Virus record (IMG/VR): IMGVR_UViG_3300042691_015370 | Location: 80,888-144,887 of that record | Length of the DNA stretch: 64,000 nucleotides | Strand: one strand, 5' to 3' | From: a virus | In this document: positions 1 to 59,598 of the stretch, in pieces | Numbering within the stretch: the first letter of the stretch is position 1 | How the letters are laid out: each line of letters begins with the position of its first letter | The notes under the pieces: generated by a model | The model's input: only the letters and a program-made list of their open reading frames with translations | Databases searched by the model: none | What the model was told of the DNA's origin: nothing | Position numbers and translations under genes: made by a program

Positions 1-3000
1 GCTTAGCGATAGGAGCAATACTTGACAAGAACTCAACCTGAGAAGCTACGTCAACACCAGACTCTGAAGCTACTGCCGTAAGCTTGTTGCCAATAAGCTC
101 ATTGCTCTCTCCGAAAGAGAGGCCAATCGCAATAGCCTGATCACTCAGAGTCTTGGTCGGCAAGTCTGCGACAACCGCAAGCTTCGCTGCGGCTTCTCGC
201 TGCTCCTTAACCAACTCTTCGCCCGAAATCGACCTATCACCAGCACCCTTAATCGTTTCTCCCAAAAATGCGCCTCTAATAGAGATCTCCATTTTTGCGA
301 TCTCATCAGCGCCGACACCAGTTTCCTTCGAAAGATCAACGATAGCCTGTTTAATGCCATCAATCTTGCCCTTAGCGTCTTCACCAAATGTTTGCGCTAG
401 CTGCGAGTCAAGGCGTGCTAGCGCAAACTTGAGTTCTTCAGCTTCCTTGAGAGCGCCAACAAGACCAGCCCCAACACCAAACAAAAGCATAGAGGGCAAA
501 GCATACTTCATACTTTGAATTGCGCCCTCACCAAACCAACCGCCCAAGCTGTCATCGCCTCGCACAGCTTGGCGGAACGCCGTAAACCGACTTGGCTTAC
601 CATTATTGCCATAAAAACGACCGCCACCGCCGTACCCACCATAGCCGCCATAGCCGCCACCGCCGCCGTATCCACCACCCATTCCGCCACCAGCAGCAGT
701 GACAGGATCTGACAAACGACCAGTTCTTCTAAACTCTTCATCAAGAATTTCTTGATCAGAAAGGTTAAAGCTCTTCTTTAATCTTTCGTACTGAGCGGCA
801 GCTTGAGCTTGTTGTTGAGCAACATCTTCTGGGCTACCAGCACCGGGACTGAACGCCTGACCCAGAGCGCCGTATGCTCTTGTAGCTGCCTTCGCTCTTC
901 TCTCTTGCCACCTAGCAGCACCCTCGTCTGCACTCAGTTCACCTGAAACGACGTCATCCCAAATGTCGGCACTCTTGCCCTCTGGGAACAGTCCTCTGCG
1001 AGCAGCAGCTTTTTGTCTTGGGGTTAAGGCTTCCCAATTACCATCACTCAAGTTACGCGCAGCCTGACGCTGGTCAGCAGCGAACTTGGCCTTACGGGCA
1101 GCAGCGTCAGACTCGGCTTTACGATCAGCATCTGCCGTTTCATTTTCGGCCCGAGCACGACGACGTTGCTCTGCTTTCTCCTGTCGCCGTTTTTCGTTCG
1201 CTTCGGCAGCCGCAGCAATAGCGGCTAGACGATCAGCTTCAGTGGCAGGACCGACAAAAGGAGTGCCACCACCATCAATAACATTAGTACCTGCACCCAG
1301 TGCTCTGCGCTCTGCGAGTCTAGCTCTTCTTGCTTCAATATATGGGTCTACTGGAGGTAGAGCAAGAGGCTGTCGTGGCCCATAAAGCGGAATTGGCACA
1401 CCAGTACCCGGAATGTCGGTACCAATCATTAACTCTCTAGCAGAGAAGCGGCGCTGTTCAGGGGTAACTCCCGGCCCCAAGGCAAGAGGTGTTGCAGATC
1501 TACCGAGTGCCTCAGCAGCGGTTGCAGCAGCATCAGTGCCCACAGCAACTGCATGCATCTCAAGAGCCGCCGTGTCCGCAAGGAGAGCTAGCCTCAGTTC
1601 TGATGCAGTAGCTGTAAGGGAATCTAATTCACTGACAAGAACGGCTCCAGAGACTCCCGTGGCAGTAGTACGAGATCTTGCTACTTCATTAGCTCTTGTG
1701 AAAATAGCGATCTGTTCTGGTGTGGCTTCTCCCGAAGCAACTAGGGGTCGCAATTCAGCAAAGTACTCACTTGGAGATAGCTTTGACTGACTCGTTGGGA
1801 ACAGTGCGTCGGGACCACTTAGTCTGTCACCTCTACCAACAATAATCCCCTGATCTTCAAGGATCTGGCGATAAGCTGGATCTAGACCCAGCATATTCTC
1901 CATACGATGCTGAGCTTCGTGCAGGGCTGTAGCCGGTCCAGCGCCGAGAGTTGCTGCACCAGCAGCACCAACCTCACGACTCGTGCCTCCACTAGCTACC
2001 CAATCGTCAACACCAGCAATCATCTCTGAGTTCATTACCCAGCGACCATCACCCGTCATTGCCCCTAGACGGCCACGGAACTCATCGCTTAGTTCTGAAA
2101 CAACCTCGGTTCTTAGATCACCCAGCAGGTTAGGTGCCCCTGCTTGCATAGAACGCATGTATGCTTCAATACCAGATGCGCTACCCAAAATGTCAGGACG
2201 ACGAGGGGTGCTATAAGCGTCAGAACCGGGACCAAGCTCTGGCGGGCGCTTGCCTTCTTGACTTCTGCGAAGTTCTTCCTCTACCTGCTGACTAATTACC
2301 TCTGCACTTGGCATAAGGCTAACTTGTCTTGGGCTTGGCCCATAAATGGTGCGGTAACCATCATTTCCATAGTAATGAGACAACTTACTGGTGCCCGTCA
2401 GGCCCCAGTTTTGAGACACCGCCTCTGTGTCGTAAAGCGATCCGTAGCTTCCAGACTTAGCATCTAGCCATTCATTATAGGCTCTAATCATCCTTTGTCG
2501 AGTACGAAGCGAGTGATCATATATGTTGTCACGGAACCCTTCAATCCACTGTACATCACCCTCGTCCTCAAGCTGCATTTGAACGAAGTTGATAGCATCA
2601 GAAGATTGGGTTTTACGGTATCTATTGGGACGACTGAATGCTGTCTCACCAGAACCAAGCTCGCCCCTGAAAGGTGGTGGGAAGAGTTCGCTATATGAGA
2701 AGGCTCCCCTGAAGGGTGGTGGCTGTGTTCTGTAGCTTGGCAGTGGCGGAGGAATAGGTCCAGTGTAAGGTGGTAGTCCCCAACCGGGGCCTGAGTATTC
2801 GGGACGAGTAACTCCGGGCAGAGAACCAGTATAAGGAGGCGGTGTTAAAGCTTGCTTATTAGCATCCCATTGAGCTTCAAAGATCTTGTACTGAGCCTCG
2901 TCGTCGGTCAAAATGCCACGACGAATCATGCGCTCAATACTTGCGGCCGCTGTTACACTAGAATCACGAAGCCGCTCCAAAGACTCTCGCAAATTGGCAG

Positions 3001-6000
3001 GTACCTCAAGCCGACCAGCAGCTAGCCTCTGCTTTTCTGTCCATTCGCTACTATCATCAACGTCGGAACCAGCAAACAGCTTGTTCCACATGATGTCTTT
3101 GACACGCTTCTGTTGAGCAATCTGCTCGGCAGTGCCACGACCAACATCGTAACCAATAACCTCTGCACTAGGTACAGGGCTAAAACGAGATACCCGTCTT
3201 GGAGAAGGACCAATAACGTTACCATATAGATCATAAGAAAGACCTATAGTACTACCGCCTAGCCCTTCACGAGCCAATCTTTCTTGAATTGCTCCTTGTC
3301 GCTGACGGCTTCTAGGGAAAGCTTCTGCAATTTCTGCACCCGGCTTATTCTCTGTTAGCATGAAGGGCAATGCAGCGTCTTCTATAGCCTGCATGGCAAG
3401 GAAGTTCATGTAGTCAGAAGACTGCGGCCTATTCGGAGTGCTGAAGATAGTGCGGCCCGTGCCTAGAGCAAGCTGCTCACGCACGAAGGAGTCAGTATCA
3501 AGACCATACAGCCAGTCTTTAAGCTCCCTGTTACGAGGACTCTTGCTCAAAACTTGTCCGAAGATATCACCCTCATTGCGAGAAACAACATCACGAACAT
3601 TCCGAGCAGCCAAGCTTGGACTACCGCCTCTACCCAATTCTGAGTAAAGATCAATGAGAGTAAATCCAGCCCTAGGATCGTACATAAAGTTACTAGCTGA
3701 ACCAGTGTCTGGACTAAGGCCCCGCATTCCAACCGCAATCAGAGATTGCAGCATGGCTCGTACCTGAACGATCTCAGGCACAATACCCTTACCCTGCCCA
3801 AGAGCCATACCGGGCGCTAGGCGAGTAATCGGGTGACCGAGCTTATCGACAGCAGCAAGTTGCTCAACACCCGGAATGCCGATTACTTGCTGTAACCCTC
3901 TAGTACGCTCTAGTAGTCGAGCATCTGCAACTTCTGGGAACTCTCCAGTACCCTCATACAGCATCTCATAAATTGAGGGGTTCTCTGGCAGCGGCTCACG
4001 CCAAACATAAGAAGATTTGCCTGCTTTGAATCCATAGGCAGCAGCCTGTGACCCAATACCAATGGGTGAACCAAGAATCTTGCCACGATAAGCGAGAGCC
4101 AACTCTTTATCAAGAGCGGCGCGTTCTTTCGATCTGGCTAGCTGCGCAGCAAGACGTGACTGAGAGGGATCACTGTATTGAGTTGAGGCACCGGGCAGTG
4201 CAAGACGTTCAGCAACACTGCGAGAAATAAGGGGAGTCGCAAGAGCTTGAGCTTCAACCAAAAGAGCCTGAGCTTCAGGACCATCAAGTCTACGCAGTCG
4301 TTGAGCGAGGTCCAAAGAGGCTTGCGGCACTCCCCTTATTTCTCTAACAGATTGGGCAGCATTTTCTACATTACCAAGAGCTTTTTCGACCAAACCGCGC
4401 TTACTGTATTGACGAGGCAACATATCAAGCTGATAGTCAATAGATGTAAATCCTCTATCGCCCGTAGTGTCGTAGAGAACATTCTTCCAATGACCGTCGC
4501 CATGGATACCCCGCAAACCCAAAGCCGCTTGAGTCCTGAAAAGCGCAAGAATCTCATCCTTAGTGGGGATGTTTCCGAAATACGTTCCCTCGTTTTGTCT
4601 ATCAACTATTTGCTTAATAGTTTGGCCGGGGGCACGACGAGTAATTGGCCTACCATCACTAACGGCAACCAACTGCTCCGCACCCGGAATTCCAATAGCC
4701 GCCTTAAGACTATCTAGTCTAGAATAGATGTTTGGATTTAGCCTTCTGATATCTCTTCTTGCAACATACTCTTGCGAACCCGCAGCAAAACCATAGGCGG
4801 AACTGTTCATACCAGTACCCAACGCCTCTTGGGTTAAGTTTCCACCTCTCAATATTTCATTTAGTGCCAAGCGATCAGACGAACGTTGCAGTTGTGTTAT
4901 GAGACGAGCATTAGAAGGAGTACTGTAAGCGTCACGCGGCATGCCAATAGCGAGGCGCTCATCTCTGGCCCAACGTTTTTCAAGATTGAGTTCACGAGAA
5001 CCCATTGCCATAGCTTGCTTATGAAGCTTATTGAAGTCCAGTGCCATACCACCAAACTGTTGGCGTAGCGGCTCATACGCTTGAGTGAACCAAGCACGGG
5101 TAAAATCATTGGACATCTGCGGGAAGGCAAGCTCAGTGGCTGCGACTTCGGCCGTCAATTCATATGGAGTTGCTCTAGAGTAGTTGCTTGGTACAAATCC
5201 TGTACCACCAACAAGACTTCTTCTAGACTGATCTTCAAACGGTGCGCCGGTCCATCTACCGCCAATGTCCGCAATTAACTGTTTACGGTTTTGTGGCACG
5301 GGCAGGAAATGTCCAGCCTCATGAGCAAACAAGGTGCCAAACAAACCTCTACCAACAAGTGCGTTTTCATTATTAACACTCTTGGGCTGTAAACCGCCGA
5401 AAAGACGACTACGAACACCCATAAATCTAGGAGCAAACCCAGACTCACCGAGCATCCTGCCATACTGCCTTTCCCAAGGACTATTAGCATCGGAAGCTAC
5501 CCTAACGCCCAAGGCACCGAACTTTGCTACACCAGAACCAAAGCGGCTATCATAGTCAGCCATCATGGAAGCCAAAACAGGCATTGGAGCATTGGCAAAT
5601 GGCCGTCTTAGCTGCGTAAGGTCAGTGCCCTTCTTGAGGATATCGGTATTAAAAGTACCATTGAATACGCTATTAAGCGCATCAAGACTTGTTTGGTTAA
5701 TACTTCGAGATACACGCGTTCTACGGGGACCGACATCATCAAACGATGGGAAGGGCTGGATAGGGGCGAACCGGCTCGTTTGAGAAAAGGCTTGAGGGTA
5801 CAAGAACTTAGCGGCAGAAACCGCTTCACGCTCACTGCTAAAGTTTGGAATAATCTTCGCAGCTTCACCGAGTGGATTAAAATTACCTGCACTAGAGAGC
5901 ATTGCATCAACAAGTGCTGGCGCATTTCTAAGAGACTTAGCCCTAGCACGAGATGCCATAAACTGCGTCGGTCCATGCCATTGCTCAATAGATGGATCAA

Positions 6001-8110
6001 CAAGAGCTTCTAGTTTGGGTAGAATCTCTCGGTACTCACGAGTCCGCTGTAGCTGTTGCTCAAGACGTTGCGAGATTGTGCCCGATCGTGGCGTCGAATA
6101 AGCGGTCTGCCCCGCACCAAGCGCTGGGATGCCAAGGTCAGCCAAAGGATCATTTGAACGAGCTTGAAGAGCTAGACGAGCACCCTTGCTAATAAGTCCA
6201 GCGTCACCAAGCTTGGTAATGTCAGCTTCCCAGATACGGCCAGAGTAGAACTTATCACCAGAGAGTCTACCGTCTAGCAATCTACCGGGCTGCACCATAC
6301 GTGCAACACCGGCGTTTGCAAATCTCTCCCATAGCGCATTAGCCTGCAATGACACAACATTATCAGACCTTGCCGTAGTAACGCCAAGCCCTGACATCAG
6401 CCTTAGCATACTATCAATGTACATCCCAGAGCCAAGACCACGACCCCGAGCGCTCGCATCAAGTGAACTTAATGCAACACTAGCAGTTGATGGTTGCCGT
6501 ACATTTGGAACATTCCAGTCAATAAAGCCACGGGCAGAATCACCGGGCTGTCCAAAGTTGTAGTTAAAGGATAGTGGAACGGTAGAATTCTGTAGCGGTG
6601 AACTATAAGCATTTCTGCCGGGAGTCAATTGACGGGACTGTCGTGCAACGTTCTGTAGAGCATTCTCCTGCTGCCAACGATTGAAAGCAATGTCGGCAGG
6701 AGTTATAACCTGACCAGAGCCAGTTGTTACTACCTGTGGTCCACCGATACGTTCACCAAACGTTCTTTGAGACAGTGAAGTGGAGGGAACATACTGAGGC
6801 AAAGCAAATGTCTGCCGATACGGCAAAGCCCCAGCTTGAGATGCTGGGGCTAGCGAAGCAGAACCGGTTGGTAGACCAGAAACCGCTGCCGCCTTGCGCT
6901 CCAGAGCATCGATCAGACCCTGCTCTGCTGCGGCGAAACGACCGTAGCTACCAGTCAGAACAGAGGTTTGTCGATCTAGGGCACGGGACTTGCTCTGAAG
7001 GGCACGAATCAGTACCTGTTCCTCAAGAGCAAGTTGACTGCCAGTATTTCCATAACCCGGCTTTGCTGGCTCAGTGGCGGGGGCTGTCGGAACCGCCCTA
7101 AGTACAGGCTGGACAGGAATAGCAATAGCAAGCTGAGCAGACTGACGCTCTTCTCTGCGACGATCTACGAGCGCCTGAGGTGCCACTGGAGCGGGGATCG
7201 CCACCATGGCGGGTTGCTGCACAGAGGTCGCAATAGGACGTGGCAGAGCGGGCTGTGAAGCCTGTACTGATGGGGTGGGAAGTTGACGTGGCCCGCCGAC
7301 AGCAACGGCCAGAACCTGATTATAGGCACGAGCAACTCTATCCCTCGTACTCTGGGCAGCAAACCTGTTGGCCGCAACAATCTCTTTCTGAGAACGAATG
7401 ACCTGATTCTGGAATGCATTGGTCTGCTCCAGCAGAGCCGTGTACTGACGTGCCTGTGCAGTCTGTCCACGGAGAATGCTTTCAAGATCCTTGTTGTACC
7501 GATCAGTGATAGCTGAACTGGTCAGTACCGGAGCGGCAGCGGCGACGTTTCTCGTCACCGACGAAGTTGTAGACGCTATGGCAATAAGGCTGGCTTCTCT
7601 GTCGAGCCGCTGATTGAAGACCTTGGAGATATCCTCAATACGAATGTTGTCCAGTACGGCAAAAAGTTGCTGTGACTTCTGAGTGAAAGCTGAAGAGAAG
7701 ACTCGTTCAATTTCTGCCTGTTGCTGTGGGGCAAAGAAGTTGAAGCCACGAATCTGTTGTTTCAGCTTGTCAAAGTAGAGATCACCGAACCTGTTCAGAT
7801 CCTGAATCTGGCGACCGATGACACGAGATGATGCAGCAAGCTGAGCCTGCATAAGCGCAGCAACACGGCCCTGTGCGGCCATGAGTTCACGCATCTCACC
7901 TCGTGAGGTGGCAATCGCAGATGTCGCAATAGTATTAGGTGATCCTAGTGCTGCAAGAGTTGTGGGGGGAGCGAGTTCCCCGGCAACACCACCAGCACCC
8001 CCTAGGGCACCGGCCTCAAGCGCACGCAACGAGTTGGCAGTCTCACGAACGCCTCTCTGAATGCCAGAGGTATCAAGATCTACACTAATAAGCCAGCGAT
8101 CTTCTGCCAT
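1..8110 (-). CDS. Tape measure protein with large N-terminal multi-enzyme cargo (runs off left edge; >2,700 aa)
   Basis: ATG at 8110 (MAEDRWLISVDLDTSGIQRGVRE) directly follows the tail chaperone genes. No track ORF occupies this frame, consistent with one open frame leaving the window. Below ~500 the translation is typical TMP core (LKEAEELKFALARLDSQL...AIVDLSKETGVGADEIA). Confidence 0.9.
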   Translation of the reverse strand, partial: MAEDRWLISVDLDTSGIQRGVRETANSLRALEAGALGGAGGVAGELAPPTTLAALGSPNTIATSAIATSRGEMRELMAAQGRVAALMQAQLAASSRVIGRQIQDLNRFGDLYFDKLKQQIRGFNFFAPQQQAEIERVFSSAFTQKSQQLFAVLDNIRIEDISKVFNQRLDREASLIAIASTTSSVTRNVAAAAPVLTSSAITDRYNKDLESILRGQTAQARQYTALLEQTNAFQNQVIRSQKEIVAANRFAAQSTRDRVARAYNQVLAVAVGGPRQLPTPSVQASQPALPRPIATSVQQPAMVAIPAPVAPQALVDRRREERQSAQLAIAIPVQPVLRAVPTAPATEPAKPGYGNTGSQLALEEQVLIRALQSKSRALDRQTSVLTGSYGRFAAAEQGLIDALERKAAAVSGLPTGSASLAPASQAGALPYRQTFALPQYVPSTSLSQRTFGERIGGPQVVTTGSGQVITPADIAFNRWQQENALQNVARQSRQLTPGRNAYSSPLQNSTVPLSFNYNFGQPGDSARGFIDWNVPNVRQPSTASVALSSLDASARGRGLGSGMYIDSMLRLMSGLGVTTARSDNVVSLQANALWERFANAGVARMVQPGRLLDGRLSGDKFYSGRIWEADITKLGDAGLISKGARLALQARSNDPLADLGIPALGAGQTAYSTPRSGTISQRLEQQLQRTREYREILPKLEALVDPSIEQWHGPTQFMASRARAKSLRNAPALVDAMLSSAGNFNPLGEAAKIIPNFSSEREAVSAAKFLYPQAFSQTSRFAPIQPFPSFDDVGPRRTRVSRSINQTSLDALNSVFNGTFNTDILKKGTDLTQLRRPFANAPMPVLASMMADYDSRFGSGVAKFGALGVRVASDANSPWERQYGRMLGESGFAPRFMGVRSRLFGGLQPKSVNNENALVGRGLFGTLFAHEAGHFLPVPQNRKQLIADIGGRWTGAPFEDQSRRSLVGGTGFVPSNYSRATPYELTAEVAATELAFPQMSNDFTRAWFTQAYEPLRQQFGGMALDFNKLHKQAMAMGSRELNLEKRWARDERLAIGMPRDAYSTPSNARLITQLQRSSDRLALNEILRGGNLTQEALGTGMNSSAYGFAAGSQEYVARRDIRRLNPNIYSRLDSLKAAIGIPGAEQLVAVSDGRPITRRAPGQTIKQIVDRQNEGTYFGNIPTKDEILALFRTQAALGLRGIHGDGHWKNVLYDTTGDRGFTSIDYQLDMLPRQYSKRGLVEKALGNVENAAQSVREIRGVPQASLDLAQRLRRLDGPEAQALLVEAQALATPLISRSVAERLALPGASTQYSDPSQSRLAAQLARSKERAALDKELALAYRGKILGSPIGIGSQAAAYGFKAGKSSYVWREPLPENPSIYEMLYEGTGEFPEVADARLLERTRGLQQVIGIPGVEQLAAVDKLGHPITRLAPGMALGQGKGIVPEIVQVRAMLQSLIAVGMRGLSPDTGSASNFMYDPRAGFTLIDLYSELGRGGSPSLAARNVRDVVSRNEGDIFGQVLSKSPRNRELKDWLYGLDTDSFVREQLALGTGRTIFSTPNRPQSSDYMNFLAMQAIEDAALPFMLTENKPGAEIAEAFPRSRQRQGAIQERLAREGLGGSTIGLSYDLYGNVIGPSPRRVSRFSPVPSAEVIGYDVGRGTAEQIAQQKRVKDIMWNKLFAGSDVDDSSEWTEKQRLAAGRLEVPANLRESLERLRDSSVTAAASIERMIRRGILTDDEAQYKIFEAQWDANKQALTPPPYTGSLPGVTRPEYSGPGWGLPPYTGPIPPPLPSYRTQPPPFRGAFSYSELFPPPFRGELGSGETAFSRPNRYRKTQSSDAINFVQMQLEDEGDVQWIEGFRDNIYDHSLRTRQRMIRAYNEWLDAKSGSYGSLYDTEAVSQNWGLTGTSKLSHYYGNDGYRTIYGPSPRQVSLMPSAEVISQQVEEELRRSQEGKRPPELGPGSDAYSTPRRPDILGSASGIEAYMRSMQAGAPNLLGDLRTEVVSELSDEFRGRLGAMTGDGRWVMNSEMIAGVDDWVASGGTSREVGAAGAATLGAGPATALHEAQHRMENMLGLDPAYRQILEDQGIIVGRGDRLSGPDALFPTSQSKLSPSEYFAELRPLVASGEATPEQIAIFTRANEVARSRTTATGVSGAVLVSELDSLTATASELRLALLADTAALEMHAVAVGTDAAATAAEALGRSATPLALGPGVTPEQRRFSARELMIGTDIPGTGVPIPLYGPRQPLALPPVDPYIEARRARLAERRALGAGTNVIDGGGTPFVGPATEADRLAAIAAAAEANEKRRQEKAEQRRRARAENETADADRKAESDAAARKAKFAADQRQAARNLSDGNWEALTPRQKAAARRGLFPEGKSADIWDDVVSGELSADEGAARWQERRAKAATRAYGALGQAFSPGAGSPEDVAQQQAQAAAQYERLKKSFNLSDQEILDEEFRRTGRLSDPVTAAGGGMGGGYGGGGGYGGYGGYGGGGRFYGNNGKPSRFTAFRQAVRGDDSLGGWFGEGAIQSMKYALPSMLLFGVGAGLVGALKEAEELKFALARLDSQLAQTFGEDAKGKIDGIKQAIVDLSKETGVGADEIAKMEISIRGAFLGETIKGAGDRSISGEELVKEQREAAAKLAVVADLPTKTLSDQAIAIGLSFGESNELIGNKLTAVASESGVDVASQVEFLSSIAPIAK

Positions 8111-12311: not shown

Positions 12312-14855
12312 TTAAGGTACATATACACTTGTGACATCCCAGTCGCTTCCATTTGATGTCACCTCCAAATTTGTTCCAACAGCAGTAATTTCGTAATCGG
12401 CAGCACCATCCACCGTCTCTCCCGATTGAGCATCAAGCCTCACAACTCCCCCAGTTGCGGCCACCCTCACTTTGATCGATCGACCGGGGCAAACGGTTGC
12501 ACTTGGTAATTGAAGAACTAGTGTTGTCAGAGCAGTGTCTACAGTGATGTAGTCACCGGCAGAAACGTCATAGCCCGCACTCACTGTGACAGCGTTTGAT
12601 GGACTGCCACTCAGGATGGAGTAGGAACCAACATAGGCACCCTGACCGTTCGTAGCGACAATGGCGCCACCACCGATAGCATTCCAACCCCCGGCAATCC
12701 ACACACCGTCAGCCGTATCAAAATGCTCAGTCATCACAACTGCACCGTTGTGGATGGTGAGTAGACTCAGATCGTCCAGAACGAGCACACAAAACGTTCC
12801 GGTCTGAGCGTTGATAGCAACATTTGTAGTGGTTCCGTTGGCGTTGAGCACGCTCAGGTTATTGCCCACCACATCTGTGGCGATCCAGTCAGGACGATAG
12901 GACCGGGAGACACCTTCACCACCCGTGATGCCAGTGCGTCCCGACGGGCCTGCGACGGGTGTCATGCCGCGCTGCGTTGGGTCACCATACAGTCGAAACA
13001 AAGCACAGTACGCCCAGCGGGTGCCGGTGTAGCTAACATGATCGTAGTTGCCAATATCGGTATCGAGCATAGAGCCGAAACCAGTCGCACGAGTTGCCGG
13101 GGCGTTCAGATGCAACGTCCAGACCCCACCATTGCCATCACTGTTATTGAGGATGGTCAAATTTTGACCATCCTCAATAGCTTGACCACCGACATGGGTG
13201 GCGGTCCCGTCGAGCGGGAAGTCGGGGTCAAACGTGACGTACTTAGAGACATGCAGATGAGGCACAACAGGTGTGACCGGATGGTAGCGGTTCAGTCTGT
13301 TCTCTAGTGTATCAATACTACTTTCAATCTCAGACAAATCGATAATGGGAAGTATTTGCTCAAAGCTACTGTACCCCAGCGTAGCACCACCAATCAGATA
13401 CAGCCAAGCCACCGAAGAGCCAAGACCGGGTGCAAGCTCGAACTTTGACACCAGCCACAGACCAGCGTCAGAAGTGTTCCATGAGCGGACCTTGACGAAA
13501 GCCCCATCACCGACATGCTCAAACAGGCCGCTTGACTGACCAGAAATCTCATCGGGATTCGCTCCGAGCACGGCCAGCAAACGCGCATTGCCAACAGTAG
13601 GCAGTCCGCTGAACATACCAACAGTCCACACACCCTGAAAGAAGGACCCACCAAAATCAGCCTCTGGATTACCAGAGATGAAAGCTACTCGCATAGATCC
13701 AGCACGCTCAGCAACTTCATCAACCGCCTCAGGCAGCGTATCTGCATTCAGTCCCGAGGCAGTGTTGTCGTAGGGGTAAACCTGAGTCGTAAAGTTGCAG
13801 TCCATTCCATCGTTGGCAGTAAAAATGATGGAGTTGCCGTACTTGTCGCCAGAGCCAACATGGACAGGAGTGCCAGTAAAGAGAGAGTCAGCTTCCCAGC
13901 GGCCATTCAACTGATGCACCCTATGGAAGTAGATGTCTCCGGGTTCAACTGACGATCCCCCGAAATCATCAACCTCAAGATAGGTGGGGTGATTCGTGCC
14001 GTTGGGTTGAACTTCGAACACTTCCCAGAAGCCATTGTGAGCCTCAGTTGGCTGCCCACCAAGACCAGCGACTCTGGGAGCAGTGAGTTCGATGCCATCA
14101 ATATCAGATACGGCAGGAAGTCTCACGTCATCGGGGTCACCAGCAGCATGAGCCAGAAGCGCATCCCCATCAGTTCCATCATGATACCCAGCGGTAATAG
14201 AAGGAATGGGTCGTCGCTTCTCGACGCTGAAAGTAGTTACATCATCTACGACACTGACATCCAGCCCATATCCGGCAACAAGCTGGGAGCCAATAACTGC
14301 CTCCCTGACAAAGAGCGTGGCAGGTGCAGTGGGGTCCAAGGGATTGTTGTTCATACCAAAGAACGTGGCTGTAGCCTCAGCATAAAGGGAAGCCACAACT
14401 TGTTCACCGCCAAGCACCGGGATTCTCTCGCATGGACCAGATGCAGTGATTCTCCACAATCCAGCGCTTGGACCAGACAGTGACAACACAGTCACCCCAA
14501 CACCCATCGACCTTGGGACGTTGGCAGCCTCGACCGTAACTCCATCAAGGCTCAGAAGATCAACTTCAGTAAAGTTGCCACCAACCAAATCAACGTCTGC
14601 ACCAACAATGCCATTGGCGACAAGATGACCACCAGAACCAGAGCCACCAGAGCCATCACCCGAAATACTGGGAAGTTCCGACCAAGTAGAAGAACCGTCC
14701 CCAATCTTCAGCGTTGCTGTGTCTTCGTCATAGCCAGCCCTACCACGAGCAAGCACCTTGTCGTTGGCCTCCCATTCGGCGGTCGTGCGGACTATTACCC
14801 CCGGTCCCGGTGGTCCCTGAACTCCATCTGTGACTACAACAACTCTACTCATCAC
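12312..14855 (-). CDS. Fibre/receptor-binding-like protein with Mtd-N/hyaluronidase-type N-terminal domain
   Basis: N-terminus TTAEWEANDKVLARGRAGYDEDTATLKIGDGSSTWSELP resembles the major tropism determinant N-terminal motif. C-terminus LPSATVCPGRSIKVR...ETVDG...SNGSDW is typical of fibres. Confidence 0.75.
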   Translation of the reverse strand: MMSRVVVVTDGVQGPPGPGVIVRTTAEWEANDKVLARGRAGYDEDTATLKIGDGSSTWSELPSISGDGSGGSGSGGHLVANGIVGADVDLVGGNFTEVDLLSLDGVTVEAANVPRSMGVGVTVLSLSGPSAGLWRITASGPCERIPVLGGEQVVASLYAEATATFFGMNNNPLDPTAPATLFVREAVIGSQLVAGYGLDVSVVDDVTTFSVEKRRPIPSITAGYHDGTDGDALLAHAAGDPDDVRLPAVSDIDGIELTAPRVAGLGGQPTEAHNGFWEVFEVQPNGTNHPTYLEVDDFGGSSVEPGDIYFHRVHQLNGRWEADSLFTGTPVHVGSGDKYGNSIIFTANDGMDCNFTTQVYPYDNTASGLNADTLPEAVDEVAERAGSMRVAFISGNPEADFGGSFFQGVWTVGMFSGLPTVGNARLLAVLGANPDEISGQSSGLFEHVGDGAFVKVRSWNTSDAGLWLVSKFELAPGLGSSVAWLYLIGGATLGYSSFEQILPIIDLSEIESSIDTLENRLNRYHPVTPVVPHLHVSKYVTFDPDFPLDGTATHVGGQAIEDGQNLTILNNSDGNGGVWTLHLNAPATRATGFGSMLDTDIGNYDHVSYTGTRWAYCALFRLYGDPTQRGMTPVAGPSGRTGITGGEGVSRSYRPDWIATDVVGNNLSVLNANGTTTNVAINAQTGTFCVLVLDDLSLLTIHNGAVVMTEHFDTADGVWIAGGWNAIGGGAIVATNGQGAYVGSYSILSGSPSNAVTVSAGYDVSAGDYITVDTALTTLVLQLPSATVCPGRSIKVRVAATGGVVRLDAQSGETVDGAADYEITAVGTNLEVTSNGSDWDVTSVYVP

Positions 14856-15055
14856 ACACCTTCTTCTTCAAATACACTTGGATCTACATAATACGTAGGC
14901 TCTATAACCTCGTAAGCGCCTAAAGTTCCTTCTGGAATAAGATCCTTCATCGATGCCGGAATCCCATGTAATATAACGCCACATTGATTCGCAATTGCTG
15001 TTTCACGCACCGCATTAGATGTTGGTAATGGTTCATTCGTAATCCAGAATTTCAT
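14852..15055 (-). CDS. Hypothetical protein
   Basis: 67-aa ORF with overlapping stop/start on both sides. Confidence 0.55.
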   Translation of the reverse strand: MKFWITNEPLPTSNAVRETAIANQCGVILHGIPASMKDLIPEGTLGAYEVIEPTYYVDPSVFEEEGV

Positions 15056-17436
15056 GATGCCCCCAGAAGAACAAGCGTATTACCAGCAGAACCATTTGTT
15101 CCAGCAGTTCCAGTTCCGCGACCAGATGCTCCAGTTCCACCATTTACCTGAAGTGTGAACGAGTGCGAAGTAGAACCAGTAATTAAAGCAATGAATCCAC
15201 CACCACCACCAGCCCCACCACCGGTATTGTTATTGTCAGCCGTCCGCTGCGCGCCATCGCCGCCGTTGGCCCTGATAGTGCCACTCCCAGCTACTTCACG
15301 GGCCTTGATGAACAAGAAGCCACCCCCGGCGCCGCCACCGCCGCCAAGCGCAGAGCCATTACCACCACCCGACCCGCCGCCGCGACCCGCACAAACAATG
15401 AGAGGCGAAGCCGAGTTACGAGAGAAAACGATACCTTGCTCCAGCATAACGACATGCGACCTCAACGCCGCTTCCGTGGTTGACGACAAGGTTGCAGCAA
15501 CACCTGAGCCACCACCTGAGCCACTAGATCCCGAACCACCAGTTCCTCCTGCACCACCGAAGGCAATAATATTGCCATTCAAAGGATTGGTGGTTGGTGA
15601 TCCGGCAACACCAGCAGTGCTTGTTCCTGTGCCACCCGCTGCGCTGTTGGTACCTGTACCGGGGGCAGCTATAAAGCTTCCGCCAGTCACACCGCTGGCA
15701 CTGCCGCCGTTGGCGCTAATGGTGCCATTTACAGTCAAAGTTCCTGACACATAGATAATCCCATGGACCGTCAACACGACGCCCGGATCAATGGTCAAGT
15801 TACGATAGTGTTTGATACCATTGCCAGTGTAAAAGTTCGAAGTAATGGTGGTATCAACAGCAATAGTAACATCACCATCAGCACCAGTTCCAAAAGCCAC
15901 CGATGGACCAACTGCGCCATCTACGCCATCTACGCCATCAGCGCCATCAGCGCCATCAGCACCGGCTGGGCCGGGATCTCCTTGAATGCCCTGAATGCCC
16001 TGTAAACCTTGCGGGCCAATCAAAGAAACACCACTGGGCCAAACTCCAGCAGCCTTAGGTCCAAACAGATAGTTAGTATCTGTTCTTATGTAGAAATCAC
16101 CGTCTACTCCTTGAGTTGTGGGATCAACCGTTCCGTGTAGAACAGTCTTGCCGTCAACTCCGTTCGCACCTGCTGCGCCATCTGCGCCAGCGGGACCGGG
16201 GTCGCCCTGTGGCCCCTGTGCGCCATCTGCGCCAGCGGGTCCCTGAATGCCCTGTATACCCTGAATACCTTGGATGCCCTGAATACCCTGTTCTCCCTGT
16301 GGTCCCTCGGGACCAATCAGAGGAAGGCCCGCAGGCCAAATTCCAGAAGCTTTAGGGCCAAATAGTGTACTCGTATCAGTCCTAATGTAGAAGTCTCCAT
16401 CAACTCCTTCGGTCGTAGGATCAACTGTACCATTCAGAACAGTTTTACCATCTACACCATCTACACCATCTACACCATCGTTGCCGGGTGGGCCTTGTTC
16501 GCCAGTAGCACCAGCAGGGCCGGGATCTCCTTGTATCCCCTGTATTCCCTGTTCGCCCTGAATACCTTGAGTTCCTTGTATACCTTGCTCTCCCTGAGCG
16601 CCTTGAGGACCAACTAAAGAAGCAAGCCAATCCTGCTCAGTCCCAACAAAACCATTGGCAACAGCAACCTCGTAAGCCGATAGACCATCGTCTCCGTCTA
16701 TTCCCGGCTCACCTTGTATGCCCTGTACGCCGGGATCGCCTTGAGGACCGGGATCGCCTTGTGCGCCATCATTACCCGGTGGACCGGGATCACCGGGTAA
16801 GCCGGGTTCTCCCTGTGGTCCCTGCTCTCCCTGTGGACCTATAAGAGATACCCCAGCAGGCCACACGTCAGCAGCTTTGGGACCAAAGATAGTACTAGTA
16901 TCAGTGCGGATATAGAAATCCCCATCTATACCCTCTGTAGTTGGATCTACTGTGCCACTCAGAAAACCGCCGCCACTACCACCAGACGGACTAACGTTTA
17001 TGACACGCCAAACTCCAACATAACGAAGCAAAATAATGGCGGTGCCGTTAGGAACGACCAACTCTGTGACCATCTCGTTGCTGACGTTAAAGATCACCTC
17101 GTCATTCTCATGAGGAATGACAGTCAAGTCGTCCATCCATGCAGAGATCACAAATGCCTGTGGGGTTTCGGGCTGAGTACTGATCTCTGGGAGATTAATC
17201 GTGCCTGTGCCACCGACAACACCATCTGTAGCAGCAAGCGTAACTGTATCTCCCATAAGAGTTTGTTCTGAAGGCAGGAACAATGCCTCACCGGGTGGAC
17301 CGGGGTCGCCCTGTGGGCCGGGATCGCCGGGGTCACCGGGAGCACCAGCAGGACCGGGAGGACCCTGTTCACCGTTGACAAACACCTCAACCGGCGATTC
17401 CGTAGGTATGACGACGACTACTGTTTCATCAGACAT
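15052..17436 (-). CDS. Collagen-like fibre protein with three internal repeats and a Gly-rich C-terminal domain
   Basis: Long G-X-Y tracts. Three copies of GTVDPTTxGxDGDFYIRTDTxxxFGPKAxxxWPxGxxLIGPxG. Confidence 0.85.
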   Translation of the reverse strand: MSDETVVVVIPTESPVEVFVNGEQGPPGPAGAPGDPGDPGPQGDPGPPGEALFLPSEQTLMGDTVTLAATDGVVGGTGTINLPEISTQPETPQAFVISAWMDDLTVIPHENDEVIFNVSNEMVTELVVPNGTAIILLRYVGVWRVINVSPSGGSGGGFLSGTVDPTTEGIDGDFYIRTDTSTIFGPKAADVWPAGVSLIGPQGEQGPQGEPGLPGDPGPPGNDGAQGDPGPQGDPGVQGIQGEPGIDGDDGLSAYEVAVANGFVGTEQDWLASLVGPQGAQGEQGIQGTQGIQGEQGIQGIQGDPGPAGATGEQGPPGNDGVDGVDGVDGKTVLNGTVDPTTEGVDGDFYIRTDTSTLFGPKASGIWPAGLPLIGPEGPQGEQGIQGIQGIQGIQGIQGPAGADGAQGPQGDPGPAGADGAAGANGVDGKTVLHGTVDPTTQGVDGDFYIRTDTNYLFGPKAAGVWPSGVSLIGPQGLQGIQGIQGDPGPAGADGADGADGVDGVDGAVGPSVAFGTGADGDVTIAVDTTITSNFYTGNGIKHYRNLTIDPGVVLTVHGIIYVSGTLTVNGTISANGGSASGVTGGSFIAAPGTGTNSAAGGTGTSTAGVAGSPTTNPLNGNIIAFGGAGGTGGSGSSGSGGGSGVAATLSSTTEAALRSHVVMLEQGIVFSRNSASPLIVCAGRGGGSGGGNGSALGGGGGAGGGFLFIKAREVAGSGTIRANGGDGAQRTADNNNTGGGAGGGGGFIALITGSTSHSFTLQVNGGTGASGRGTGTAGTNGSAGNTLVLLGAS

Positions 17437-53631: not shown

Positions 53632-54069
53632 TCAGTCTCTCTTCTTCTTTGTTGAGCCAATTACTGTCATTACGGGAGCATTTTGAGGGAAGAATGTCAT
53701 CGGCGTGCCGTCCGGTAGTTCAACAAGCCCATCACCTTGAGCACCGCCATAACCAGCAGGATGCAGCAGCAAAACTGCTCGCCACTCATAGTTGCCATCT
53801 AGGTTCATGTCAGTTCGAATCACGTTGATGTCAGCAACCGCTGCCCAAGGATCAGTCCAAGTATCTGGATCATTGATGTCGCTTGGTCCAATAACCTTTG
53901 GCTGTGCCTGAATCGAAAGAATCTCAGTAAAACCAAAATCCTCTGGTTCAAGAATTACGCCACCAACAGTATAAGGTCCCTCAACTCCAGTGACCTCAAC
54001 GATTTTGATCTGATTACCACTGGAATCACGCAGATCTGATGCAAGAATTGTATTGAATGTAATAGCCAT
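53632..54069 (-). CDS. Hypothetical protein
   Basis: 145 aa with AGGAG RBS. Confidence 0.6.
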   Translation of the reverse strand: MAITFNTILASDLRDSSGNQIKIVEVTGVEGPYTVGGVILEPEDFGFTEILSIQAQPKVIGPSDINDPDTWTDPWAAVADINVIRTDMNLDGNYEWRAVLLLHPAGYGGAQGDGLVELPDGTPMTFFPQNAPVMTVIGSTKKKRD

Positions 54070-54203
54070 ATCAAACTCCTAAAGCTTTCGGTTGTTGTAG
54101 AGCCAGATGATCCCAGCAATAGCAGCAATAGTCACAATCACATCACTGACAACATCCAACCAAAGTACGAGCATAACCATACAACGACAGCAAAACTGTT
54201 GAT

Positions 54204-54413
54204 TCAATCCTCGTACTCAACAACAGTGTCGAAGCCACCATCTACTTGCCGAACCTCAATGATGGTTGCCTCAAACTCTTCCCCGTCCATCTCAACAGTC
54301 ACGATCTTGCCCACCTGTTCCTTCAGCACCTTGCGCAGAATCTTGTCCCGAGCATGCTGAGGTAGTAAAGGGATGTGTGGTAGGTCTAATGGGAAGTGCG
54401 TTTTGATTCTCAT
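54204..54413 (-). CDS. Small hypothetical protein
   Basis: C-terminal part of a track ORF looks protein-like; start uncertain. Confidence 0.4.
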   Translation of the reverse strand: MRIKTHFPLDLPHIPLLPQHARDKILRKVLKEQVGKIVTVEMDGEEFEATIIEVRQVDGGFDTVVEYED

Positions 54414-54694
54414 ACACCATGTTACGGGCCAACATGCAAGAAATTGCATATATGCAAGCAATAATGTGAAAAATTGCAGTGATATTGCAGGATTCACACC
54501 AAAATTGCGACAAACAAAGAGTTGGAATGCAATACTTTGCCAGTGGGCAGCAGGCAATACCGCCCAGTCCCTAGTAAACACGGGGTTCGGCCCCGGGGGG
54601 TGGTGCGACGGGTCGATCCGGGGTACATTGGTGTTGTCCCCGCCGCCGAGGTGAGCGGGGGGGGGGAGCGGCAAGGCTCCCCGAACATAGGCAC

Positions 54695-54723
54695 TTGACT
54701 GCTACGCTTAGGCGTGTCATGCT
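54695..54723 (+). promoter_or_regulatory. Sigma70/SigA-type promoter (TTGACT-17bp-CATGCT, extended -10 TG)
   Basis: Near-consensus hexamers with 17-bp spacing at the start of the plus-strand high-GC region. Confidence 0.65.
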
Positions 54724-54729
54724 CGTGTC

Positions 54730-55420
54730 GTACAAGGGAGTATCGGTCCCGCCTAACAGGCCGCACCGTTAACCATCGGCAGTGCTAGTTCTGAACAGCT
54801 AGCGTGTCAGTCCACCGGGCATCCCTCATAGCCAACCTCGCTATCCTGCGATTCTGGTCCTGCCGTGGCAGGTGCATAGTCTCCCCACCTAGAGTGGCGA
54901 CGAGTGCGAACCGGACCCCAACGTGGTGCAAGCTAGATAGTCGCCCCTGTGACGAGAGGTATTGGCACGCTTCCCCTAGCGTGAAGTCTGTCCCCATGCG
55001 ACAGGTATGGACTGATGCTAGGTACGCCGTAAAGGAAGTGTGAGCTAGTGCGACGGGGAGCCTACCTAGGTAGTGCGCCACAATAGGAGCTAGCGTCATC
55101 GGTTAGGGACGGCCCGGTAAGAACGGGGTGCTACTGAGAACGGTGTGGGTATGTGTCGGACCCACGGGTGACTGGACAGTGCAACGTCAGGGACGGCCAC
55201 GGACGACTGAGTGCGAAGCCTGCCCGGAAACCAACCTAAGTGTAAGAGCGCCTAAAGCTTACCGCAACCCTAACCTACGCCCAGAGTCGAGAGACTAGGG
55301 CTTAGCAAGTGTGCCCGCTGGGCCGACCGTGCAACTGCACTCCAGAACGCTTGCTACGCCGGTCCTCCTAAGGCTCGACGTCTGCTCTGGGCGCCATGCG
55401 ACAGAGGTTCGCAGTAGCTA
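54730..55420 (+). ncRNA. Candidate large structured non-coding RNA
   Basis: No credible ORF; several nested long-range helices found by eye (see findings); directly downstream of the promoter. Confidence 0.6.
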
Positions 55421-55437
55421 GCACATGGAGGACCATC

Positions 55438-55842
55438 GTGTCCGAGAACACCGCAATCACCCCCGAGATGGCGCAGGCCGAGATCGACCGGCGTGCCGCC
55501 AACAAGGCCGCCAAGGCAGCGGCCCGCAAGCAGGGTGCCAAGAAGTTCACCCGCATCGCCGCCACCGACCCGGTGCTCATGGCCCTGTCGGGTGAGCAGT
55601 TGGACCTGCTCGTCAAGCCCGCCGAGGCCCAGCCCGAGGTGCCCACCATCAAGACCGCCCCGGCGTGGAACGAGCCGGGTGTGCGGGGTGGCGACCCGGT
55701 GAAGCGCAACCGGGCGCTGCTGGCCGACAAGCTGGTGGGTGCCGACTCCAAGGGCACCCCGGCGTGGTGGGACGCCTACCGCTCGACCAAGGACATGACC
55801 TTGGACGAGTTGGGTGTGGCGCTCGGGTTCATCACCGCCTGA
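55438..55842 (+). CDS. Hypothetical early protein
   Basis: GTG start with GGAGG RBS; strong GC3 codon bias. Confidence 0.7.
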   Translation: MSENTAITPEMAQAEIDRRAANKAAKAAARKQGAKKFTRIAATDPVLMALSGEQLDLLVKPAEAQPEVPTIKTAPAWNEPGVRGGDPVKRNRALLADKLVGADSKGTPAWWDAYRSTKDMTLDELGVALGFITA

Positions 55843-55849
55843 GATGCCA

Positions 55850-55875
55850 AGTCCTGAGCATGACTGAAACTGCTC
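55850..55875 (+). repeat. Pseudoknot motif copy 1
   Basis: AGTC-CTGAGCAT-GACT-GAAAC-TGCTC. Confidence 0.75.
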
Positions 55876-55941
55876 GCCCCTACACCTAGGGTGTGGTGCT
55901 TCGATGCACGCTAGGGGGCCACCTGCGAGAAAGGTACATGC

Positions 55942-56139
55942 ATGAGCAAGCCCGTCCCGCCACCGCCACCCACACGGCGCAACGTGTTCTCCCCGACCGA
56001 CCGTGACCCCAAGGTCACCCGTACCCGCACGGCCTACACCGTGGACCGTACCAGCCGCCCCGGTGTGGTGACCCGCTCGCACACCGAGGGCAAGCTGACC
56101 CGGCGTGAGTTGGAGCGCATGATGAAGTACCGGGGCTGA
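55942..56139 (+). CDS. Hypothetical basic protein
   Basis: 65 aa, GC3 bias, RBS. Confidence 0.6.
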   Translation: MSKPVPPPPPTRRNVFSPTDRDPKVTRTRTAYTVDRTSRPGVVTRSHTEGKLTRRELERMMKYRG

Positions 56140-56173
56140 GATCACACACCGGGCAAACGTCCATAAGACCAGC

Positions 56174-56530
56174 TTGGAGGCTGAGTTGAGCAAGCGCACC
56201 TACAACTACATGGCACCCCGTGCCCTGCGAGCGAACATGCGATCCCGCTCCAAGACCGAAGATCCGATGCACGATCCCCGCAAGCACGAGCGTCGGGTGG
56301 AGCAGATCCCGTCCGAGTACCGCACCCTGCCCGGATCACCGCAGCACATCGTGTCGAACATGCCCGCAGTGTCGAGTGTGCTGGGCATGATGGGTGAGAA
56401 GCAGGCCCGCTACCGGGTCGAGAAGGACAACAAGCGCACCGAGTACGTCGGTCGCACCTCCAAGCTCCCCGAGTGTGGGCCGAGCGCCCGCAAGTCCGAC
56501 AACCACCGAGCCGCAGCAGACGGGAAGTGA
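56174..56530 (+). CDS. Hypothetical basic protein
   Basis: GC3 bias; true start may be TTG at 56186 after GGAGG. Confidence 0.6.
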   Translation: MEAELSKRTYNYMAPRALRANMRSRSKTEDPMHDPRKHERRVEQIPSEYRTLPGSPQHIVSNMPAVSSVLGMMGEKQARYRVEKDNKRTEYVGRTSKLPECGPSARKSDNHRAAADGK

Positions 56531-56532
56531 CC

Positions 56533-56736
56533 ATGAACGAGCGCAACCGACGAACCACCAAGCCACGCCCAGCACGACCCACCATCGTCTACCGCATCGG
56601 TGGCATCAGGTGGGTGCCATGCACGCAGACCGAGGCCGAGTGGTACTACCACGCCGCCGAGGGTCAGGTGTACCCCAACGTGTGCTACCCAGTCATGCAC
56701 AAGGGGCACGCTGTCATGCCAGTCCGTCCACTCTAG
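56533..56736 (+). CDS. Hypothetical protein
   Basis: Start MNERN; GC3 bias. Confidence 0.55.
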   Translation: MNERNRRTTKPRPARPTIVYRIGGIRWVPCTQTEAEWYYHAAEGQVYPNVCYPVMHKGHAVMPVRPL

Positions 56737-56751
56737 CGAGAGGCTAGTCCC

Positions 56752-57054
56752 ATGACCGAGACAGTCAACGGTCGTCCCGTCAAGAACTTCGTCGCCATGT
56801 TCGTCCCGCTCAGCATCTGTGCCTTGCCCGAGGAAATGGGCCTCAAGGGCACGGGTGTGCAGATCCCCGGCTTCACCCATGAGGGCATGACCGTGGAGCC
56901 ACACCTCGTGACCGAGGTGATGGAGGGTCACAACTGCGTGACCGTGGAACCGGGTCGCAAGGCCCACATCTTCGCAACCCGTGCAGAGGCGGAAGCCTTC
57001 GTAGAAGCACAGACAGTCCGCAAGTCGGGCTGGATGGTCCTTCCCCGTACCTAG
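56752..57054 (+). CDS. Hypothetical protein
   Basis: 100 aa with GAGG RBS. Confidence 0.6.
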   Translation: MTETVNGRPVKNFVAMFVPLSICALPEEMGLKGTGVQIPGFTHEGMTVEPHLVTEVMEGHNCVTVEPGRKAHIFATRAEAEAFVEAQTVRKSGWMVLPRT

Positions 57055-57068
57055 GAGGTACACACATC

Positions 57069-57218
57069 ATGACCAACCCCACCAAGACCAAGCACGTCGT
57101 CCGTACCAAGACCCACATGCAGGCGTTCAGCGACGAGCGTGACCGCCGCATCGTGGACTGGGTGCTGACCGCCGAGTCCGAGGACTGGGAAGCCTCCCAG
57201 TCCCAGCCCATCGACTGA
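57069..57218 (+). CDS. Small hypothetical protein (49 aa, not in track)
   Basis: AGGAGG RBS; MTNPTKTKHVVRTK... Confidence 0.6.
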   Translation: MTNPTKTKHVVRTKTHMQAFSDERDRRIVDWVLTAESEDWEASQSQPID

Positions 57219-57279
57219 CCACAGCTACCTTGCCAGTGTGCAAGGGGTGTGGTGAGAGGAACGAGATGTTCACTACACA

Positions 57280-57545
57280 GTCCTGAGCAGGACACGAAAC
57301 TGACTCAACGATGCCACACTGTACCGGGTCGTCCGGGCAGGAGATGGACGAGCGGCTGGCCGCACGCACAGCGTTTACATGAATGGTCCTGAGTAAGACT
57401 TTAAACATCTGCTCACATAGCCCTAGCACACAGTTGCAGAGGGAATGGCACTGAGCAATGCCACACAAATTGCTCCCGCAACGTAGGTGCTACGGCAACT
57501 TGGAGTGTGAGTGATAGCTGGTCCTGAGTATGACGTAAACTGCTC
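57280..57545 (+). repeat. Cluster of four pseudoknot motif copies (57280, 57386, 57446, 57521)
   Basis: GTCCTGAGCAGGACACGAAACTGACTC; GTCCTGAGTAAGACTTTAAACATCTGCTC; TGGCACTGAGCAATGCCACACAAATTGCTC; GTCCTGAGTATGACGTAAACTGCTC. Confidence 0.75.
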
Positions 57546-57604
57546 CGCTAGGGTGACGTGTTATATCACCCCCGAGGCTACGGACGGTAAGCCGTGGCAA
57601 ACGT

Positions 57605-57699
57605 TTGTAAAGGTAGCCACCCAAGGGGCCTTAGTCAAGGGTGTAGCCAAACCGCTACTAGCAGGCTGGTGTCGTAAGTCAGCCCTACCTTTACAACCA
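57605..57699 (+). ncRNA. tRNA-sized multibranch element ending in CCA
   Basis: TTGTAAAGGTAG pairs with CTACCTTTACAA, encloses hairpins, and is followed by CCA. Confidence 0.45.
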
Positions 57700-57767
57700 C
57701 ACCATCGTATGGTGTGTCTAGTAAGCGTAACAAGGAATCGGTAGCGTCCCCGCACCCTCCGGGTGTG

Positions 57768-57862
57768 AAGAAGGGTGGGCTGATCCCTGACCGGAGTTCA
57801 CGCAGCAACCGTGCTGGTGCCGGGGTGAAGGACAGCGGGCTAGGTTCGACTCCAGCCTTCTT
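57768..57862 (+). ncRNA. tRNA-like element (acceptor-like stem plus T-loop)
   Basis: AAGAAGG/CCTTCTT stem and GGTTCGACTCC T-arm; no canonical anticodon arm. Confidence 0.45.
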
Positions 57863-57908
57863 GTTGCGCTTATTAGCTACACCAACCAAGCCCATGAGAG
57901 GGATTTGC

Positions 57909-58190: not shown

Positions 58191-58348
58191 ACGCAAGAAC
58201 GTCAGTCTGGCTGGATTGATCCCCGGACCTGACAACGTGTGGGTCTAGCACTAGGTAAGAATTGTTGGCCTCGTTTAGAGTGTTTGAGCCGCAATCGCCC
58301 ACACAACCATCGCAAGTTCCCAACCCGCCTTTAAGGAGGCACCCAGCA

Positions 58349-58609: not shown

Positions 58610-58656
58610 TTCCCTAGCTAACCAACCCAACCAACCACGACGCCACAGGAGGCAAC

Positions 58657-58884: not shown

Positions 58885-58889
58885 GTTAC

Positions 58890-59143: not shown

Positions 59144-59144
59144 T

Positions 59145-59218: not shown

Positions 59219-59242
59219 CACGACACCCTTTAAGGAGGGATG

Positions 59243-59595: not shown

Positions 59596-59598
59596 GTC

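Follow-up and report, generated by a model that had tools for sequence, protein, structure and literature searches.

What would two domains with the hallmarks of protein kinases do inside the tail ruler of a bacteriophage? This question is raised by a stretch of viral DNA of 64,000 nt (in the following called the window), positions 80,888 to 144,887 of the IMG/VR record IMGVR_UViG_3300042691_015370. The record consists of one linear virus contig of 144,887 bp that is ~89% complete, and the window represents its final 64 kb. On the minus strand at the beginning of the window lies a giant gene, a single unbroken reading frame of 4,466 codons (genome positions 75597-88997) that starts at window position 8110 and encodes a tail tape measure protein.

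Window 2..8110, minus strand: giant tape measure gene, first 2,703 codons; the gene runs on beyond the window start to genome position 75597.

Behind its conserved N-terminal 500 residues and ahead of the tape measure core, this protein carries a series of enzyme-like modules, among them two consecutive kinase-like modules.

Window 4178..4927, minus strand: kinase-like module 1, residues 1062-1311 (AlphaFold2 model, kinase matches in Foldseek and VIA-align, 81.7 bits with the family model).
Window 3446..4177, minus strand: kinase-like module 2, residues 1312-1555 (36% identity to module 1, 84.5 bits with the family model).

The best overall explanation, to which we assign a probability of about 0.55, is that these are paralogous kinase-family domains within a tape measure that would act on the host after delivery.

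The carrier protein is a true phage tail tape measure. The model TIGR01760 matched its C-terminal half at residues ~2545-2893 with 53.1 bits (E = 2.5e-14; cut-off 28.8 bits), phrog_28 (tape measure protein) matched with an E-value of 1.7e-7, and the gene is placed between tail genes. Collagen-like tail-fibre and tail-spike genes lie upstream of it, small genes and a reading frame of 1,598 amino acids downstream, in the same order as around two related tape measure genes described below (P0002 and P0003). An earlier reading of this DNA, based on the sequence only, had already named the host protein of the domains a tape measure, in agreement with these matches.

The two modules are paralogues, judged by their sequences. 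They are 36% identical over 188 columns (BLASTP, E = 1e-25), and a chunked self-BLAST of the whole protein returned the same pair (residues 1051-1225 versus 1301-1487) as its strongest internal repeat. A hidden Markov model (HMM) built from 14 stand-alone homologues alone found exactly two copies within the 4,466 amino acids, with 81.7 and 84.5 bits, and no third one. The folded core of module 1 comprises residues ~1083-1287 (window 4250-4864), and the HMM match in module 2 spans residues 1333-1490 (window 3641-4114). The kinase motifs are located at residues 1096-1226 in copy 1 (window 4433-4825) and 1349-1488 in copy 2 (window 3647-4066). All motif strings quoted in the sequence-only reading were found in the minus-strand frame starting at 8110, and its claim of a paralogous duplication was confirmed. 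The matching architecture exists in two separately assembled relatives, P0002 (3,639 amino acids) and P0003 (4,213 amino acids), so it is not an artefact of assembly.

Do these modules adopt a kinase fold? Four lines of evidence agree that they do, and we regard this assignment as almost certain. The first is a comparison with the PDB, using a profile from an alignment of 17 sequences (called A2, from which all conservation counts below are derived). The best match was the type III effector kinase NleH1 (E = 1.5e-3), followed by NleH2, with OspG lower in the list; nearly all others of the 50 matches were protein kinases or APHs/aminoglycoside kinases. In the profile alignment, the Gly loop, the basic residue in strand beta3, the D...N-x-x-Y-D motif and the I-D motif are in register with NleH1. 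The second line is an AlphaFold2 model of module 1, built with A2, which reached a predicted local distance difference test score (pLDDT) of 79.5 and a predicted template modelling score (pTM) of 0.77. Searched against the PDB with Foldseek (E ≤ 1e-3), it gave at least 500 matches, and every one listed is a kinase, from Rio2 at the top (1zar, E = 1.3e-6) via PRPK and RIO1 to Mnk1, Src and NleH2 (TMt 0.63). The sequence-only reading had proposed a kinase-like fold and named structure prediction with Foldseek as one way to check it; its proposal was borne out. Third, VIA-align against 48,161 chains returned kinases only among the top 50, with Z scores of 11-13 and ~190 aligned residues. Fourth, the nearest neighbour in a language-model search was the OspG family effector kinase cluster (0.95), and all of the ten best named clusters share its family or clan; the named neighbours in general come from kinase-like families. 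Structure matches in BFVD were almost all viral proteins named as kinases. The bilobal kinase fold that characterizes the protein-kinase-like superfamily was thus recovered by AlphaFold2, Foldseek and VIA-align.

Not every search saw this fold. Pfam, PHROG and NCBIfam, applied to the whole protein and to nine segments, yielded no match in the kinase region; the single module sequences gave only noise when compared with the PDB by sequence; and a single-sequence AlphaFold2 prediction of both modules together was uninformative (pLDDT 36). The missing library matches and this low score are what one would expect if the motifs resembled those of kinases by chance and the region were merely linker or coiled-coil tape measure sequence. 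The agreement of four independent lines on a kinase makes such a coincidence hardly credible.

The next question is whether the residues needed for catalysis are in place. They were assigned in both copies as follows.

Window 4811..4819, minus strand: copy 1 Gly-rich loop G1098-x-G1100, by alignment the counterpart of G-K-G-G-N in NleH1; codons checked.
Window 4757..4759, minus strand: copy 1 R1118, in the place of the beta3 Lys; by alignment its counterpart in NleH1 is the lysine of V-L-K-M.
Window 4481..4498, minus strand: copy 1 catalytic loop D1205...N1210; D in 16/17, N in 17/17 of the family.
Window 4436..4438, minus strand: copy 1 D1225, the DFG-equivalent metal-binding Asp; invariant (17/17).
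Window 3998..4000, minus strand: copy 2 R1371 at the beta3 position, from the 17-sequence alignment; codons checked.
Window 3689..3709, minus strand: copy 2 catalytic loop D1468...N1474, from the 17-sequence alignment; codons checked.
Window 3650..3652, minus strand: copy 2 D1487, the DFG-equivalent Asp, from the 17-sequence alignment; codons checked.

The Gly loop of copy 2 (G1351-x-G1353) aligns to the G-K-G-G loop of NleH1. By this alignment, the Gly loop, the catalytic Asp and Asn and the metal-binding Asp are retained in both copies, and the respective claim of the sequence-only reading was upheld, including the replacement of the beta3 Lys by Arg in both (R1118 and R1371). In the numbering of the copy 1 module, Gln 85 (E-Q-L), Gly 101 (hinge), Asn 149 (catalytic loop), G-F 159-160 and the metal-binding Asp 164 are invariant in all 17 sequences, and the catalytic Asp 144 is kept in 16. 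The beta3 column is always basic, with Arg in ten and Lys in seven sequences, which argues for a kept function at this site and not for decay. E1145, just ahead of beta4, is conserved in 15 of the 17 and might substitute for the Glu of helix alphaC. From this pattern of residues we lean, on slightly better than even terms, towards catalytically competent phosphotransferases.

Copy 2 had been taken by the sequence-only reading for a diverged copy and a possible pseudokinase. This could not be maintained and we rejected copy 2 as the degenerate one: it scores slightly higher than copy 1 with the 14-protein HMM (84.5 versus 81.7 bits), and its loop G-L-S-P-D-T-G-S-A-S-N...I-D-L is nearer to the family consensus than the H-G-D loop of copy 1, whose His is peculiar to that copy and not general in the family. 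A complex prediction of copy 1 with copy 2 gave a score of 0.00, which we take as evidence neither way.

To which family do the modules belong? Among 1.84 billion representative proteins, a profile built from both copies identified 17 relatives only. Two of them are giant tape measures, P0002 with a tandem pair (residues 588-754 and 864-1003) and P0003 with a single copy. The other fifteen are small stand-alone proteins of 188-592 amino acids, two of them named RIO-like or Ser/Thr kinase by their sources and several with weak matches to APH, Kdo, RIO1 or ABC1 models; the stand-alone relatives that we inspected lie in ordinary bacterial gene neighbourhoods. Among these is P0004, a Saccharimonadales protein of 592 amino acids with a tandem pair of its own (residues 92-278 and 352-530). 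No relatives emerged from pattern scans of IMG/VR, queried with the kinase pair and with the C-terminal 403 residues, or of JGI metagenomes, queried with a 3-sequence alignment. Searching GenBank phages for the kinase region by megablast and tblastn gave no match, and word-indexed homologue searches returned one already-found protein or nothing. Family members are mutually only 20-35% identical. Because no curated kinase family model matches them, we place the domains in a new family of their own, small and rare, within the protein-kinase-like superfamily; its closest neighbours are the NleH/OspG effector kinases and the RIO/Bud32 atypical kinases.

A maximum-likelihood tree, with many long branches, grouped copy 2 with the one kinase module of P0003 as its sister (support 100/99), while the two copies of P0002 pair together (93/95), as do those of P0004 (97/91). 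Since the pairs in P0002 and P0004 each form their own sister group, tandem pairs appear to have arisen independently at least twice, in addition to the pair in this protein. This recurrence, read from the sequences, hints that a pair may be useful, and the kinase could work as a pair, given the independent tandem pairs in P0002 and P0004.

How are the kinase domains set into the tape measure? Their borders are marked by a joint peptide, L-G-x-G-x-x-A-Y-S-T-P, which is present in seven copies at module borders (residues 502, 671, 1062, 1312, 1556, 1825 and 1966; window 2204-6631, minus strand). The core pattern [YF]S[STDR]P occurs seven times in the protein compared with 0.24 times expected from shuffles. 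The three joints around the kinase modules are:

Window 4916..4927, minus strand: linker Y-S-T-P at residue 1062, bordering module 1 on its N-terminal side.
Window 4166..4177, minus strand: linker Y-S-D-P at residue 1312, the border between the kinase modules; matches Y-N-Q-P at P0003 residue 919.
Window 3434..3445, minus strand: linker F-S-T-P at residue 1556, bordering module 2 on its C-terminal side; matches Y-N-R-P at P0003 residue 1170.

At the corresponding borders P0003 has a variant of the joint, L-P-x-P-E-V-Y-N-[RQ]-P. The seven joints are at most 56% identical in their DNA and use differing Ser codons, indicating that selection acts on the peptide; for the same two reasons, we rejected the joints as sites of DNA recombination. 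From its sequence, the joint peptide is a candidate cleavage or docking site.

The kinase domains are two of about seven modules fenced by these joints, and the modules turn over between related phages in a cassette-like manner. Upstream genes share 77-82% identity with their counterparts at the P0003 locus (L003), and the ends of the tape measure 54% and 71%, whereas the kinase modules are only 29-40% identical to that of P0003. Moreover, the kinase module and a module with an HExxH motif are adjacent in P0003, while in this protein two additional modules were inserted between them at joints. The additional modules are paralogous to each other (residues 1549-1656 versus 1818-1943; window 3143-3466 and 2282-2659, minus strand; 37% identity, E = 2.5e-8), are absent from P0003 and have no match in Pfam or the PDB; a comparison of the whole 1556-1824 module with the PDB gave nothing meaningful either. 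On a wider scale, the sole GenBank phage relative is the mangrove-soil phage GX15bay (L006; MK557849.1, Caudovirales), with a TerL 44% identical. Its tape measure, of 2,098 amino acids, has neither cargo modules nor HExxH motifs nor joints, which gives the cargo array the look of a lineage-specific insertion.

HExxH motifs occur in two separate modules, both encoded on the minus strand: H-E-A-G-H at residue 930 (window 5309-5323) and H-E-A-Q-H at residue 2064 (window 1907-1921), the latter conserved in P0003. The language-model neighbours of the module with the first motif are viral lethal-factor-like and M90-like zincin clusters (0.93). Neither the PDB, searched with the single HExxH modules and with a 2-sequence profile of them, nor the HMM libraries yielded a meaningful match. 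Two further observations concern other parts of the protein. The sequence R-G-R-G-L-G-S-G around residue 555 (window 6098-6610, minus strand) resembles the acetyl-CoA loop of GNAT acetyltransferases; the module around it (residues 503-670) has no match in Pfam, NCBIfam or the PDB. A Gly/Tyr-rich low-complexity run with G-G-Y-G-G repeats (window 608-694, minus strand) lies directly ahead of the tape measure core.

Would these domains then be active kinases that reach the host? Several points weigh against this. The fold model rests on 17 sequences, and the curated models APH (PF01636), OspG_kinase (PF22303), RIO1 (PF01163), Kdo (PF06293) and Kinase-PolyVal (PF18762) did not match at E ≤ 10 when tested by hmmscan, in the case of OspG_kinase also by a six-frame genome search (cut-off 27 bits for PF22303 and PF18762). 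The beta3 Lys characteristic of the protein-kinase-like superfamily is Arg in both copies; a Lys-to-Arg exchange at this position usually inactivates canonical kinases, and mammalian KSR, a pseudokinase, has Arg there. The column aligned to the alphaC Glu of NleH1 holds no conserved acidic residue but mostly Arg. With regard to delivery, the lumen of a siphovirus tail tube should be too narrow for a kinase domain of ~25 kDa in its folded state, present in three copies. Finally, the identification of the HExxH modules as peptidases, from the motif and the language-model neighbours alone, is only a lead.

The points concerning the active site can be read to mean that both domains are pseudokinases, at most binding nucleotides and serving as scaffolds, binding modules or spacers. 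This reading accommodates the beta3 Arg in both copies and ten of 17 family members, the missing equivalent of the alphaC Glu and the appearance of KSR pseudokinases among the weak PDB matches. It fits poorly with a catalytic Asp in 16 of 17 sequences and an invariant Asn and metal-binding Asp at a mutual identity of just 20-35%, and the switching between Lys and Arg in an always basic column is unexpected for a decayed site. We therefore consider it a serious alternative, yet a doubtful one.

The domains may also be active without being protein kinases, for instance as small-molecule or envelope kinases similar to APH, Kdo or WaaP, as RIO-like ATPases or as AMPylases. The weak matches of some family members to APH and Kdo models point in this direction, as do the WaaY and Kdo clusters among the language-model neighbours, the H-G-D...N loop of copy 1, which resembles the Brenner motif of APH and choline kinases, and the top rank of Rio2 in Foldseek, RIO kinases being largely ATPases. 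The best neighbours in sequence and language-model searches, however, are the protein kinases NleH and OspG, the His of the H-G-D motif is specific to copy 1, and ATP is absent from the periplasm, the site of envelope substrates. In our judgement, an activity of this kind is quite improbable.

For host-acting kinases, the proposed course of events would be as follows. The kinases would exit the tail together with the tape measure and ahead of the DNA, as proposed for polyvalent proteins, perhaps after the protein's own HExxH modules have severed the cargo at the linkers. Both domains would then find ATP in the host cytoplasm, bind it and transfer phosphate, most likely onto host proteins. For delivery into the host with the tape measure, argued by analogy, we see a chance somewhat short of even. 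Because the folded domains would be expected to be too large for the lumen, delivery would need unfolding, storage elsewhere or prior cutting. A more elaborate version, in which ~2,000 residues of cargo travel unfolded inside the tail lumen or behind it and precede the DNA into the host, the HExxH modules cut the seven joints and, among other modules, two active kinases with beta3 Arg are freed to phosphorylate host defence or translation proteins, appears unlikely as a whole.

The expected misfit between the folded globular domains and the tail lumen also speaks for another explanation, that the cargo is never delivered. The modules would be cut from a precursor in the producing cell and act late or be discarded, and the conserved ends alone would build the tail. 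The two HExxH modules and the seven linker peptides as candidate cleavage sites are in line with this, and processing of the tape measure is known from lambda and T5. Against it, cutting of this protein is so far hypothetical, and the fast turnover of modules between near relatives fits a conflict with host defences at entry. In addition, the fusion of effectors to a virion protein is a recurrent signature of injected polyvalent proteins (PMC5512222). We hold undelivered cargo to be unlikely.

How do the domains compare with known systems? The type III effector kinases NleH1, NleH2 and OspG (PF22303; PDB 4lrj, 4lrk and 4q5e) likewise have a small kinase fold without an activation segment, and NleH1 shares the Gly loop, the basic beta3 residue, the D-x4-N motif followed by Y-D, and the I-D motif in register with the phage modules. 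These effectors are carried into another cell by an injection device, which resembles the proposed delivery by the tail. The phage modules differ in lacking a match to PF22303, in having Arg instead of Lys at beta3 and in possessing more helices in the C-lobe, so that ~190 residues align with full kinases. They are furthermore embedded in a tape measure and in tandem, and their target would be a bacterium. The RIO and Bud32/PRPK atypical kinases, the top structural matches, are of similar size and also lack an activation loop; compared with RIO, the phage modules have no match to the RIO1 model, neither the RIO flexible loop nor the N-terminal winged helix, and Arg at beta3.

Enzymatic motifs within tape measures are known as peptidoglycan hydrolases, from Pb2 of phage T5, mycobacteriophage TM4 and staphylococcal phages. 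There, too, an enzyme domain lies inside the tail ruler and is released at infection. Those enzymes have the cell wall as their target and work without ATP, whereas here a multi-module cargo of ~2,000 residues includes ATP-dependent folds that could function in the cytoplasm only.

The closest concept is that of the phage polyvalent proteins, strings of effector domains including reduced kinases and metallopeptidases that are fused to virion proteins and were proposed to enter together with the DNA (Iyer et al. 2017, PMC5512222). Such proteins are recognized by at least two effector-type domains in one virion-linked polypeptide, and the two kinase-fold domains represent such a combination. Minimal kinase domains have been described in injected polyvalent proteins, but tape measures are not mentioned in that study (PMC5512222). 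The kinases of polyvalent proteins (PF18762) are similarly reduced, make up a single module within a long multi-enzyme protein whose gene lies among virion genes, occur with metallopeptidase modules, and have a proposed role in the host after injection, as suggested here for the phage modules. Differences are the lack of a PF18762 match, the missing insert between the His and Asp of the catalytic loop, the retained C-lobe helices and the carrier, which is a tape measure. Phage T7 encodes a Ser/Thr kinase, gp0.7, whose targets are host proteins in early infection (cited in PMC5512222). It is synthesized after entry and is no virion component, and no sequence relationship to it was detected. In our literature search, no report of a kinase domain within a tape measure came up.

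Turning to the surroundings of the gene, the collagen-like tail-fibre protein has 794 amino acids (window 15052-17436, minus strand) and many strong matches to PHROG tail-fibre families. Next to it follows a protein of 847 amino acids with a tail-spike-like N-terminus (window 12312-14855). Genes for terminase, ribonucleotide reductase and PhoH are located further along the genome. The segment from 54001 to 62000 of the window has a G+C content of 0.57-0.61 compared with 0.45-0.53 in the remaining window and may have a different origin.

In the usual view, tape measures serve as rulers and form channels, carrying at most wall-degrading motifs. The family described here is new to the curated libraries, and its natural alternation of Lys and Arg at beta3 makes it a convenient test of whether Arg supports catalysis in a minimal kinase. 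The conserved joints define a candidate cleavage site that is testable on recombinant protein without the uncultured phage. How ~2,000 residues of globular cargo, in three copies, relate to a lumen of 4 nm is a physical puzzle. If the interpretation as host-acting kinases is true, ATP-dependent signalling enzymes in a tape measure would mean that long-tailed phages can pre-load enzymes for takeover or anti-defence in the tail.

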